Source: Candidatus Borrarchaeum weybense
GTDB lineage: Archaea; Asgardarchaeota; Sifarchaeia; Borrarchaeales; Borrarchaeaceae
NCBI GenBank assembly: GCA_019057385.1
Contig: JAHQJS010000006.1
Span: 352,001-416,000, forward strand
Reading direction: 5' to 3'
Length of the DNA: 64,000 bases
The notes below the pieces were generated by a model, which made no database searches, was not told where the DNA came from, and saw only the letters and a program-made list of their open reading frames with translations. Made by a program: the position numbers and the translations under genes. This document shows, piece by piece, positions 35,798 through 40,446 of this stretch. Each line of letters starts with the position of its first letter. Positions within the stretch are counted from its first letter, which is position 1.

Positions 35798-36160
35798 ACT
35801 CGTAAGTTATTTCTTCCTATCAATTTCCTGATTCTTAAGAAAAAAGGAATAACAAGAAGTAAATATGTATGTTAAAAATGTAGTATTAGTTTAAAGAAAG
35901 AGGCGGTGCGGTTGAATGAAAGAAGAGAGTGCAAATAAATACGAAGAACTTATACAAATGTTAAGAGAGAGTCCTTTAGGATATGCCTGGTCTTTCTTTT
36001 GTTTTATTTGATATCAGCGAGAAGACCCCTTCCGAGAGGGAAGGGATGAATCGCTGACCGCGTTTCTTCCTCTTTCTCACACCTCCGATAAGACATCATC
36101 TATAACTAAGTAAGTGAGCGCGTACGGGGAGCGTGGGAACACCATATGTTTGTTAGTTAT

Positions 36161-37384
36161 TTAGTATGGGCAGTTGAACTGCAAGCCGCTGCCATACCTC
36201 ACCAATTTCACGTGTTTGACCTGGGTATTAACGGTAGCGCCGGTTGGGGTTTTCAAGCGCACCCAGCGCCCCCGGTTGAATATCCCCTTGACCTGGCACC
36301 GCTGTCCCTCATAGGAGATCAGGTCATGAGGCTGTAAGGCGTACCGTTGTGTTCGGATGCTGCGTCCATATCCTTTTCTATTCATTTGGATACTTCGATT
36401 GTTGCGCCGGGGTTGCATCACCATAAAGGGTCGACACCTGGTTTGCTGGCGGCCTCCGGCGATGATAAAGGCGTCATTGGGGTGTGATTTGGCTAACCCC
36501 ACCTCAAGCCGTCGTTGCTTGGTGAGGTAGCCGTAAGTGTGGTTACATTCCAACTGGTCAACCAGTTGCCATCGGACCAAATTCATGAAGGCCGCACTTT
36601 TCAGTGATGCCTTCGCCTGCCGGTGGATTTCAGGGTGTCCGAACTCGGTAGCGGTCCGATCGCCTTTGTGTTGATTGCAGCGCTCACAACTCAGGGTGAG
36701 GTTCAAGACCCGATCACTGCCACCCCGTGACCTGGGGATGATATGTTCCACCTGAAGCGGCACTCCAGTCTTGCCGCAATAGACGCACTTTCGTCCCCAT
36801 TTTTCCAAGAGATACTCTCGTATATGATAGCCTTGCAAGGTTCCCTGTTGATATTCGACCCCTGAGATTTCCGGGTTTTGTAGCAACTGGGTATCAAAGG
36901 TAGCCACCTCCAGTTCGGTACGGCTGACGGGTACCAGGGTCTTAATCGTGTCAATCAGGGTGATATGCGCTTGCTTCTTATGGCGGAGAGAGGGAGCTAA
37001 CCAACCCTGCTCCCGTTTCCGGTTGTCAAACCTCGGCGCCCGATATCGGGTATTGCGGCTGCGCCGGTTTCTTCGATAATTTCTCCTCTGCTCCAATTTC
37101 TTAGACATGTCGTTTCGTAAAACCAACTCGCCCGTCAGCAGTTCCTCTTTTTCTGCAACGGCGGAAAACCCCACCTTTGAATAGCCGCTATCCACCCCCA
37201 GCGTCACCTGGGTAGTATAGCCCATTTCTCGGTCTCGCAAGCGAATACTGAACGGCAATCGCGCTACCACTTTCGCCCCACCTTTTTTTACCAGGAGTCT
37301 ACCTCTGGCTGGAGTGGTGGGATCTAAGGGGTTCCCTTGTGCAGATTGAACGTAGACTTTAATCAGCAACGTTAAGGTCTCCAA
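36161..37384 (-). CDS. iscB: RNA-guided endonuclease IscB
   Basis: PLDP (PLMP domain), RuvC-I LGVDSG, Arg-rich bridge helix RRNYRRNRR, RuvC-II ELEVA, HNH CVYC..EHIIP..CERCN, RuvC-III SHPNDA. Confidence 0.96.
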   Translation of the reverse strand: METLTLLIKVYVQSAQGNPLDPTTPARGRLLVKKGGAKVVARLPFSIRLRDREMGYTTQVTLGVDSGYSKVGFSAVAEKEELLTGELVLRNDMSKKLEQRRNYRRNRRSRNTRYRAPRFDNRKREQGWLAPSLRHKKQAHITLIDTIKTLVPVSRTELEVATFDTQLLQNPEISGVEYQQGTLQGYHIREYLLEKWGRKCVYCGKTGVPLQVEHIIPRSRGGSDRVLNLTLSCERCNQHKGDRTATEFGHPEIHRQAKASLKSAAFMNLVRWQLVDQLECNHTYGYLTKQRRLEVGLAKSHPNDAFIIAGGRQQTRCRPFMVMQPRRNNRSIQMNRKGYGRSIRTQRYALQPHDLISYEGQRCQVKGIFNRGRWVRLKTPTGATVNTQVKHVKLVRYGSGLQFNCPY

Positions 37385-37388
37385 AACT

Positions 37389-37682
37389 AACTATCTTTAA
37401 CGACCTGTAAAGGTCAGCTCCGCAACCGCGGGTAGGTCCTCATCGCCAATGTTGGGGCAGGCACAAAACATGATGATGGTGCAGGTCTCAGGATAGCGAC
37501 CTGGGTCGTCCACCATGTCTTTCAGAGCCCGGAACTTGAGGAGCATTCCGGGGTGATTTTCAGACACTCAGCACCGAACGTAGTTCATCTGCCTCCACCC
37601 TACAGGAGACATCACTCAGGCTAATCTCCACCCCTCTACAGGGACTCTTTCAAGCCTCTTCCGACAGGGAGGGGTAGTTGAC
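37389..37682 (-). ncRNA. IscB omegaRNA scaffold (HEARO-like); guide predicted from 37683 outward
   Basis: Starts GTCAACTACCCC, contains CTACGTT, GGAATGCTCCTCAAGTTCC, CAACATTGGCGA; immediately upstream of iscB. Confidence 0.9.
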
Positions 37683-37711
37683 TTTCATGCTTCTCGATTA
37701 TCGACTGCAAT

Positions 37712-38777: not shown

Positions 38778-39305
38778 TCAAGTTAAAAAACGCTCAAAAA
38801 GTATTTCATCAATGTATTCATCTGCAATCTTAAACTGCTTCTTTCTTCTTCCCGCTTCCCGAAAACCAAATTTTTTATAAAGAGCGATGGCAATTCGGTT
38901 TGTGTGAAACGTACTAAGACATATTTTTTCAAATCCTAGATGTTTTGCATTCTCTATCGTTTTCTTAAGCAATTCGCTACCTACACCTTTTCCTCTGTAA
39001 TCAGGGTCTACTATAATTCCAATTTCACACACATGCTGAGCAGCATCGTCTTCTAAACGTTCCAATTGAATTTGTCCTACTAACTCACCTTGAATTTCTG
39101 CTACTATAATTAAATCATAATTTCCAAGATCAAACCATCCATTCGTGACTTCTTCAATTGTTATTTCCTGCAGCGTAGGTAAAAACTGCTTTTCTTTAAC
39201 AACCTTGTTAAACATCTTTTTTAGACTAATAATGTCTTCTTTGGTTGAAAATCGCACTTTAATATCATTTGTTTTGTATTTTGATGATTCTTTTTTATCG
39301 GACAT
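38778..39305 (-). CDS. GNAT family acetyltransferase
   Basis: VDPDYRGKGVG, NRIAIALYKKFGF. Confidence 0.93.
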   Translation of the reverse strand: MSDKKESSKYKTNDIKVRFSTKEDIISLKKMFNKVVKEKQFLPTLQEITIEEVTNGWFDLGNYDLIIVAEIQGELVGQIQLERLEDDAAQHVCEIGIIVDPDYRGKGVGSELLKKTIENAKHLGFEKICLSTFHTNRIAIALYKKFGFREAGRRKKQFKIADEYIDEILFERFLT

Positions 39306-39399
39306 TTGACATCCATCTACGAAACATCATCGGATTCGGAAACCAATGTTTTTCTGAAAAGTTTAGTTTATTGAATCTTCTCGCTGCCTTTAACTTTAT

Positions 39400-39437
39400 C
39401 GGAGGGAAATCCCATCAGTCAAGGTGGGGTAGTTCAT
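39400..39437. mobile_element. 38-bp single-hairpin IS200/IS605-derived mini element (PATE/REP-like)
   Basis: TTTAT at 39395-39399, hairpin CCCATC-AGTCA-AGGTGGG, ends GGGGTAGTTCAT like the iscB element right end. Confidence 0.6.
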
Positions 39438-39648
39438 GTATGCTTTTTTCATAACTCAAGAGAAAAACGCTTCTAGTGTACTAATGCTTTATCTAAGAGC
39501 GAATAATTCTTAATTACTGCTAGACAATAGTTATTTAAGAGGGATTGCTCTTTTAAAATAATGGCATTTAGTACATCACCAAATCATTAGAATGGTTAAA
39601 TACACGCCCCAAAGAGAGTGTCTGATCTAACGTTAGAGGAATAATGTG

Positions 39649-39943
39649 GTCAACTACCCCTCCCTGTCGGAAGGGGCTTGAAAAAGTTCCTATAGAGGGG
39701 TAGGAGATTAGCCTGAGTGATGTCTCCTCCAAGGTGGAGGCAGATGAAATACGTTCGGGGCTGAGTGTTTGAAAATCACCCCGGAATGCTCCTCAAGTTC
39801 CGGGCTCTGAAAGACATGGTGGACGACCCAGGTCGCTATCCTGAGACCTGCACCATCATCATGTCCGGTGCCTGCCCCAACATTGGCGATGAGGACCTAC
39901 CCGCGGATGCGGAGCTGACCTTTACAGGTCGTAAAACATAGTT
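39649..39943 (+). ncRNA. Stand-alone omegaRNA scaffold, second copy
   Basis: About 17 differences over ~295 nt (hand count) from the reverse complement of 37389-37682. Confidence 0.9.
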
Positions 39944-40062
39944 TCGGGCACATATTCCTGTGCTCGCAGAAAGGGTATGTGTTCATCCACCTTACACATT
40001 ACAAAAAACTATACCACAATTCATCTCCAGCCTGACGGATGTAGTCTTCTTGCGGAGGTTAG
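39649..40062. mobile_element. Non-autonomous omegaRNA-only IS200/IS605 element
   Basis: omegaRNA copy followed by left-end-type sequence CAATTCATCTCC...TCTTCTTGCGGAGGTTAG and ATAAA at 40063-40067; no iscB ORF. Confidence 0.85.
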
Positions 40063-40068
40063 ATAAAA

Positions 40069-40446
40069 ATGGGAGAAACTTCAACATCAAAAATCGACAC
40101 AATTACACAACTTCTTAAAAAGATGGAACTATCTTCAGGGTTGACAGCTAGCGCTGTGATCAGTAGAGAGGGTTTACCTATAACCTCAGCTATGCCATCA
40201 GATGTCAATGAAGAGATAATTGGGGCTATGACCGCTGCCATGCTTTCGCTTGGCGAACGTGCTGTTGATGAGTTAACACGAGGTAATTTAGAACAACTTT
40301 TCGTCAAAGGAAATGAAGGATACTTAGTAATAATGGCCGCAGGTCCAAGTGCAGTCTTGGTTGCACTAGCACCTGATGGAGCCCTATTAGGTCTAATCTT
40401 CCTTGATATGAAACGAACTGCTCAGCAGGTCTCTGAGCTTTTATGA
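40069..40446 (+). CDS. Roadblock/LC7 (MglB-like) domain protein
   Basis: SAVISREGLPI, AMTAAMLSLGER, VKGNEGY, LGLIFLDMKR. Confidence 0.93.
   Translation: MGETSTSKIDTITQLLKKMELSSGLTASAVISREGLPITSAMPSDVNEEIIGAMTAAMLSLGERAVDELTRGNLEQLFVKGNEGYLVIMAAGPSAVLVALAPDGALLGLIFLDMKRTAQQVSELL

Follow-up and report, generated by a model that had tools for sequence, protein, structure and literature searches.

The window analysed here comprises 64,000 nucleotides of contig JAHQJS010000006.1 of the Asgard archaeon Candidatus Borrarchaeum weybense, the genome of which amounts to 4.18 Mb in 8 contigs, with 37% GC. Positions 39649-40062 of its forward strand are occupied by a 414-nt ORF-less mini-element of the IS200/IS605 type (ISC/IscB lineage, PATE-like), and the leader of the downstream Roadblock/LC7 gene (40069-40446, + strand, 125 aa; Pfam PF03259, E=6e-17, residues 14-101) now contains this element, the ATG at 40069 lying 6 nt past the element end and being the same ATG that is kept in the congeners. 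A one-nucleotide ambiguity (a G) allows the bounds to be read either as 39649-40062 or as 39648-40061. From its 5' end, the element (+ strand throughout) consists of an omegaRNA (HEARO) scaffold at 39649-39950, which matches RF02033 and is 94% identical to the reverse-strand stretch 37385-37682; of a module of ORF-less elements at 39951-40019, with the core CCTGTnnnCGCAGAAAGGG placed within a stem, which occupies the place of iscB; and of the far end at 40020-40062, comprising a subterminal hairpin (~40025-40044), CTTG and a 10-nt tail with the motif GGAGGT (40054-40059). The target site and TAM, ATAAAA (40063-40068), is owned by the host rather than by the element and is present in the element-free alleles, while the guide is the host 5' flank that abuts the scaffold (39633-39648, + strand, last 16 nt TTAGAGGAATAATGTG), the longer flank being ...GTTAGAGGAATAATGTG, as had been given earlier from the sequence. 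The subterminal hairpins at 39657-39676 and ~40025-40044, as read from the letters, are similar to each other; there are no terminal inverted repeats, and the first stem of the scaffold doubles as the subterminal hairpin of that transposon end. The mechanical ORF list holds no frame longer than 58 aa within 39649-40062, and nowhere in the same interval do four T stand in a row.

Another scaffold within the window belongs to an iscB gene of 407 aa on the reverse strand (36161-37384), the product of which matches the Pfam RRXRR profile over positions 1-174 of 174 (E=2e-60) together with HNH, the RuvC and HNH coverage being full and the catalytic residues assessed by eye only. Its omegaRNA scaffold (37385-37682, - strand; RF02033, 67.4 bits), followed by a guide flank of its own at 37683-37698, adjoins iscB and is co-oriented with it; no iscB follows the scaffold that begins at 39649, which therefore stands alone. 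The inverted repeat pairs 37389-37682 with 39649-39943 (246 nt at 94% and 53 nt at 92%), and the homology begins exactly with GTCAAC at 39649 and ends near 39950, where iscB would begin. The sequence-only reading had described an inverted, ORF-less scaffold of about 94% identity 2 kb from iscB, and had taken it for an omegaRNA element that stands alone and draws a guide of its own from the flank; the repeat alignment and the ORF list agree with the former, and the latter is borne out by the flank, which differs at each copy and is held by the empty alleles.

Over 39649-39900 the RF02033 model is matched along positions 1-211 of 211 (68.1 bits, E=5.7e-13). Both HEARO matches in the window (68.1 and 67.4 bits; E ~1e-12) span the entire model; they were accepted by E-value and lie below the RF02033 gathering score of 83 bits, because of which an Rfam scan of the window at the gathering threshold gave no matches. 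As the iscB-linked copy and the copy at 39649 are level in score, the low HEARO value reflects the divergence of the lineage, not decay. An RNAalifold analysis of eight family-A scaffolds (the families are described below) found 0 of 87 pairs compensatory, as these scaffolds are too alike, and so adds no independent structural support.

The genome carries 12 iscB genes, of which that of the window is the only member of family A, the other 11 being 52-56% identical to it. With the use of an nhmmer profile built from the 12 linked scaffolds, 32 near-full scaffolds were found in the whole genome, and 20 of these 32 are without iscB: four belong to family A, nine to family B together with the copy C4:538985, which has no recognisable far end, and six to family C. 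The genome-wide count of copies and guides that had been proposed as a check on the locus thus yields about 20 solo scaffolds beside 12 iscB genes, with differing flanks. The four family-A solo copies, the window copy included, are spread over three contigs, and the three sisters (C4:1161817-1162232, + strand, 90% identity; C8:133811-134222, - strand, 89%; C4:705584-705994, - strand, 85%) match the whole of 39649-40062, all 414 nt and not the scaffold alone, their 5' flanks being unrelated. Every copy begins with GTCAAC after an unrelated flank of its own. The window element is one of four family-A solos rather than a unique companion of the neighbouring iscB; the proximity of iscB was rejected as evidence of a functional link, given that sister copies lie on other contigs. 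The closest relatives of the IscB protein are in Candidatus Borrarchaeota MAGs (84-88% amino-acid identity), in keeping with a host that is a sediment Asgard archaeon.

In 16 solo elements, drawn from each of the three scaffold families, the core CCTGTnnnCGCAGAAAGGG lies 297-335 nt past the start of the scaffold; no full-length iscB element of the genome has it. For the module around it, RNAalifold returned a weak consensus of -4.3 kcal/mol, and its stem seemingly covaries, by eye only (CACATA/TATGTG vs GGCACCT/AGGTGCC); the stretch 39951-40019 might act as a 3' structure of the RNA, as a processing site or as a single-stranded DNA signal. The three sister copies keep the far end (40020-40062), which is also conserved where two iscB elements of family B terminate. 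Family-A elements of full length, whether from this genome or from Borrarchaeota MAGs, end with ...GCTGATATCA(A/G) and have no Shine-Dalgarno-like motif, whereas the family-A solo elements end with ...CTTGCGGAGGT..., like the two family-B iscB elements. Since the ends of the family-A solos resemble those of family B and not those of full-length family A, the solo elements look like a separate lineage with swapped scaffolds and not like fresh deletions from each iscB element. For mobilisation, a single intact Y1 transposase ORF (PF01797) is present at C7:194221-194586, the only intact one in the genome, and its pairing with these ends is putative.

Several other arrangements of mobile elements were met with in the same material. 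At C4:705284-705994 (L004), the scaffold of a family-B iscB element has a family-A solo element ~30 nt away on its upstream side, and the family-B guide consists of the TAM of the A element and the intervening spacer, so that the OMEGA elements are nested. An RNA-library contig (X17) runs to the equivalent of 39979 of one element, then through 14 other letters and into a new scaffold start, which hints at omegaRNA elements arranged head to tail in a related strain. An unrelated repeat of ~120-300 nt (L046:1-296, C6:872256-872551), with dozens of matches at 80-96% identity across all four congeners, is probably another miniature element family.

The insertion itself is documented by element-free alleles in two congeners, G004 (C52:45633) and G002 (C177:773), which read ...AATAATGTG|ATAA(A/T)AATGGG, and G004 matches the window at 100% across ATAAAA and the 22 nt of flank next to the join. 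The join expected on excision, ...AATGTG|ATAAAAATG, had been predicted from the window alone; it is carried exactly by both G004 and G002 (junction 39648|40063), where the comparison of empty alleles suggested at that time could be made directly. Alignment with the congeners identifies the guide flank of the 39649 element as the native DNA of the empty alleles. These have GTG|ATAAAA, so that the insertion took place at N|ATAAAA without target duplication, and ATAAAA lies directly 3' of all four family-A solo copies and of the family-A iscB element. An identical 414-nt skip, that is, the empty allele, is found in a contig from a sediment RNA library. RNA splicing, which the GT..AG limits of the skip in an RNA library would allow, was set aside because G004 and G002 have the same join in their DNA and because the initial GT belongs to the conserved ISC terminus. 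The insertion is polymorphic among close relatives. At the site of the iscB element (36008-37682), G004 has only a remnant of ~50 nt (L041, C52:47638-47710), in which the guide flank and 28 nt from the scaffold start run directly into the far-end hairpin; recombination between two similar hairpins seems to have deleted iscB and most of the omegaRNA there, and G004 retains a family-A iscB, 90% identical, elsewhere (L043). That 39649-40062 is an omegaRNA-bearing, non-autonomous element of the ISC type is near certain.

The effect of the insertion on the roadblock gene was considered in the light of translation initiation in this organism, the 16S rRNA of which has the 3' end ...GGATCACCTCCT. (The 16S rRNA gene, C5:332567-335232 in L034, spans 2666 nt vs 1478 model positions and holds ~1.2 kb of inserted sequence, an intron or insertion.) A survey of Shine-Dalgarno motifs upstream of 2379 long ORFs, taken as a proxy for genes, with the position given as the motif start relative to ATG, showed peaks for GGAGG at -12 (45 counts), GAGGT at -11 (45), GGTGA at -10/-9 (42 and 42) and GTGAT at -8 (33, with 29 at -9). 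Because these peaks stand above a background of mostly 0-6 counts for these five-letter motifs, the organism makes use of Shine-Dalgarno pairing. The GTGAT of the empty allele begins at -9, in register with the genome peak, and the insertion splits its GTG from AT; in the filled allele, the GGAGG brought by the element begins at -15 (genome-wide count 15), which is within the used range and 3 nt upstream of the mode. The earlier description of GTGAT as replaced before the ATG by the GGAGGT of the element is, as a reading of the sequence, sound in view of the empty alleles and of the register survey, and GGAGGT at 40054-40059 is accordingly a candidate replacement ribosome-binding site. The motif may have come from a family-B type end rather than from selection, since the full-length family-A ends have no Shine-Dalgarno-like motif. 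The ATGA-type ends, ...CTTGAGGTAATCTT|ATGA, place GAGGT at -11, the mode of the genome. In three congeners (L066, L068 and L071 of G001, G004 and G002, respectively), a remnant made of the hairpin and ...CTTGAGGTGATTTG|ATGA lies directly before an ORF of 248 aa, with a TATA-like AGTATTTAAAT just upstream of the remnant and with the scaffold absent from the 420 nt upstream that were covered in the congeners; a decayed transposon end may serve as the ribosome-binding site of this ORF.

A position close to a start codon is not peculiar to the window copy. When the empty sites of 19 solo elements were rebuilt, C4:538985 being left out for want of a recognisable far end, six of the joins were followed, at a distance of 0-14 nt, by the first ATG of a co-oriented ORF that measured 120 aa or more. 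The same applies to 1.8% of the AT[GA]A sites in the genome as a whole and to 5.8% of those in intergenic regions (P=9e-7 and 5e-4, respectively); the statistic uses a small sample and ORF proxies in place of gene calls, and models selection against intragenic insertions roughly. The six host genes are mutually unrelated and encode the Roadblock/LC7 protein of the 39649 element (Robl_LC7, residues 14-101), a PurM-like protein (AIRS, from residue 42), an FKBP-type isomerase (FKBP_C, from residue 8), a HEPN protein (HEPN, from residue 10), a glycerol kinase (FGGY_N, from residue 5) and a zinc-ribbon protein with a weak match from residue 3, under the curated cut-off, the element of which was missed by the automated far-end search and added manually. 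Thus, five of the six have Pfam domains above the curated cut-off that begin near the N-terminus, and the positions fit the six ATGs as true starts. Empty sites with guide|ATGA joins are present in congeners for three more of the six elements, and further solo elements of the congeners abut ORFs of 240 aa and of at least 498 aa.

The guide 16-mer of the 39649 element is unique in the genome, its sole exact match being its own flank, and a second genomic target was rejected, as the whole genome holds no match with up to two mismatches followed by ATAAA. Since the guide lies outside the element, it needs an outside promoter, for which the candidate TATA-like boxes of the roadblock gene at 39531-39562 (+ strand; TTATTTAAG at 39531-39539 and TTTTAAAATAAT at 39551-39562), recognised by sequence, would be the sole ones available; the box at 39531-39539 is conserved in all four congeners. 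A marine-sediment DNA contig (X5) departs from the window at 39539 into the hairpin-like CCCCATCCGAAAGGGTGGGG..., which points to a further insertion between these genes in a related strain. Among the assembled RNA-library contigs, which have a depth of 2-5, possible DNA carry-over and no information on strand, start, end or RNA origin, one (X16, depth 2.4) bridges 39984-40190, joining the element end to the roadblock ORF, another (X15) represents the empty allele and includes, ahead of the join, ~22-28 nt of the guide region, and scaffolds of the 39649 family with other guides are present in three libraries. These contigs, found by word sharing, give no cover over 39300-39620, which has no bearing either way. 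Transcription of the omegaRNA from the roadblock promoter is weakly suggested by this evidence.

An internal promoter, such as the A/T-rich ...AAAAAACTATACC at ~40003-40015, ~55 nt before the ATG, would make the omegaRNA and the mRNA separate transcripts and would deprive the former of its role as leader. A TATA-like stretch is indeed kept there in the sister copies (AAAGAAATATACC), and the RNA contig that reaches the roadblock gene begins only at 39984; a contig start is, however, not a transcript start, and solo elements of families B and C, which are without such a stretch, abut start codons equally often, so that this arrangement appears quite improbable. With the roadblock promoter preferred, the transcript is predicted to run on into the roadblock ORF, because the element is without a T-run terminator. 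As to the protein partner, the neighbouring IscB is the only cognate candidate, since none of the other 11 iscB genes encodes a family-A protein, and the use of the 39649 guide by it in trans is plausible.

Combined, these observations may be explained as follows. A mini-transposon inserted at N|ATAAAA, splitting the GTGAT Shine-Dalgarno site of the roadblock gene and making the upstream host DNA its guide; guide and TAM are contiguous only in the element-free allele. The RNA would start at the roadblock promoter and, in the same transcript, continue into the roadblock ORF, the translation of which would start from the GGAGGT of the element; the family-A IscB encoded 2 kb off would act in trans, loaded with this RNA, and cut empty alleles or donor joints, after which homologous repair would restore the element (restorative homing). 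The whole of this explanation, namely a PATE-like element with restorative homing, a shared transcript and translation from GGAGGT, is given a probability of about 0.62.

The state of the window copy itself points partly in another direction. Its far-end hairpin differs from that of the sister copies by two substitutions, both of them unpairing (environmental contigs have G at 40042), because of which this copy may no longer excise, leaving the guide targetless in this cell line. These substitutions, the 6-15% divergence from other copies and the lack of covariation support speak against current activity. They would suit an inert passenger, a decaying insertion tolerated by the roadblock gene, with a GGAGGT that is constrained by transposition or inherited from the family-B type end and does not work as a ribosome-binding site, and with an RNA that, should it arise, is unused by IscB; copies that are 85-94% identical are not recent, full-length family-A elements do without a GGAGGT-type motif, and compensatory pairs were not seen among the scaffolds compared. 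Such a passenger is nevertheless unlikely, if to be taken seriously, when set against a scaffold that is whole over the HEARO model and scores as the iscB-linked copy does, against the enrichment of solo elements just before start codons, against the presence of the family scaffolds with other guides in the three RNA libraries, and against the freedom of the element from any terminator-like T run.

Domesticated TnpB-derived factors, TldR, offer an analogy for a regulatory exaptation, according to which the expression of the roadblock gene would be tuned by IscB through binding or processing of the leader omegaRNA or through guided binding to the locus. What speaks for it is the layout only, with scaffold and ORF on one predicted transcript, together with the element-end remnants that form the apparent ribosome-binding site of the 248-aa ORF in three congeners; yet Pfam covers the RuvC and HNH parts of the IscB in full, close relatives are polymorphic for the insertion and the host genes are unrelated to one another, and hence a regulatory role of this kind is hardly to be expected. 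Restorative homing on a shared transcript may be extended into a more general, tentative and rather doubtful proposal, in which the ORF-less IscB elements of this Asgard genus would be specialised "leader riders" that insert between ribosome-binding site and ATG at N|ATGA or N|ATAAAA, bring a consensus Shine-Dalgarno motif at working distance, a dedicated 3' module and no terminator, and allow one host transcript to give both the guide RNA, as protector of the insertion, and a translatable mRNA, their decayed ends persisting as host ribosome-binding sites. If so, host transcription would be captured at little cost.

The locus offers a clean natural case: the filled and empty alleles are exact, only one IscB is cognate, guide and TAM can be read off, and the expression of the roadblock gene should report on the element. 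If the Shine-Dalgarno end is functional, an RNA-guided transposon would gain the outside transcription that it needs while sparing its host, and the clustering of the elements at gene starts would be explained. Through this locus, active OMEGA elements are also documented in Asgard archaea, and the known framework is left unchanged. In the literature searched, no description was found of a far-end Shine-Dalgarno-like motif placed for the host ATG, nor of the module common to ORF-less elements.

Stand-alone omegaRNAs, according to Altae-Tran et al. 2021 (via PMC10691335), are mobilised and work in trans, and their biological role is stated to be unknown (PMC10691335). The 39649 element is like them in having no effector or transposase gene, a flank-derived guide and effector loci in the same genome (PMC10691335), and action in trans with a compatible effector would be expected; it is unlike the ones covered there in its occurrence in an Asgard archaeon, in its exact empty alleles and in a solo-specific module that extends across three scaffold families. 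IscB guides need outside transcription, with a bias to co-orientation, and PATE-like elements encode omegaRNAs (Meers et al. 2023, PMC10055086). Such elements share with the present one the lack of a protein gene, the presence of both ends, a guide outside the boundary, co-orientation with the host gene and the logic of restorative homing (PMC10055086), whereas they were described for Geobacillus, in a study mainly of TnpB, and the far end here has a Shine-Dalgarno-like motif before the host ATG. ISC termini begin with 5'-GT and insertion is directed to N|ATGA or ATAA (Kapitonov, Makarova, Koonin 2016, PMC4810608); likewise, the element has a 5'-GTCA terminus, subterminal hairpins, no target duplication and an insertion 5' of ATGA/ATAA, and mobilisation in trans by a Y1 transposase would be a further likeness (PMC4810608). 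ISC transposons encode IscB, in contrast to the element, in which iscB is lost and the conserved 5' region, now known as omegaRNA, is kept. Its RNA is like the Rfam HEARO RNA (RF02033) in the full-length match and the same stems, and unlike it in scoring 68 bits, under the gathering score of 83. With the IStrons, a group I intron combined with IS200/605 (bioRxiv 10.1101/2023.11.20.567912), it has in common that harm to the interrupted host transcript is limited, but the IStrons self-splice from the RNA, while here, with no intron, a ribosome-binding site would limit the harm. Altogether, this is a known kind of element, in which the candidate replacement ribosome-binding site at the far end is the one modestly new detail.
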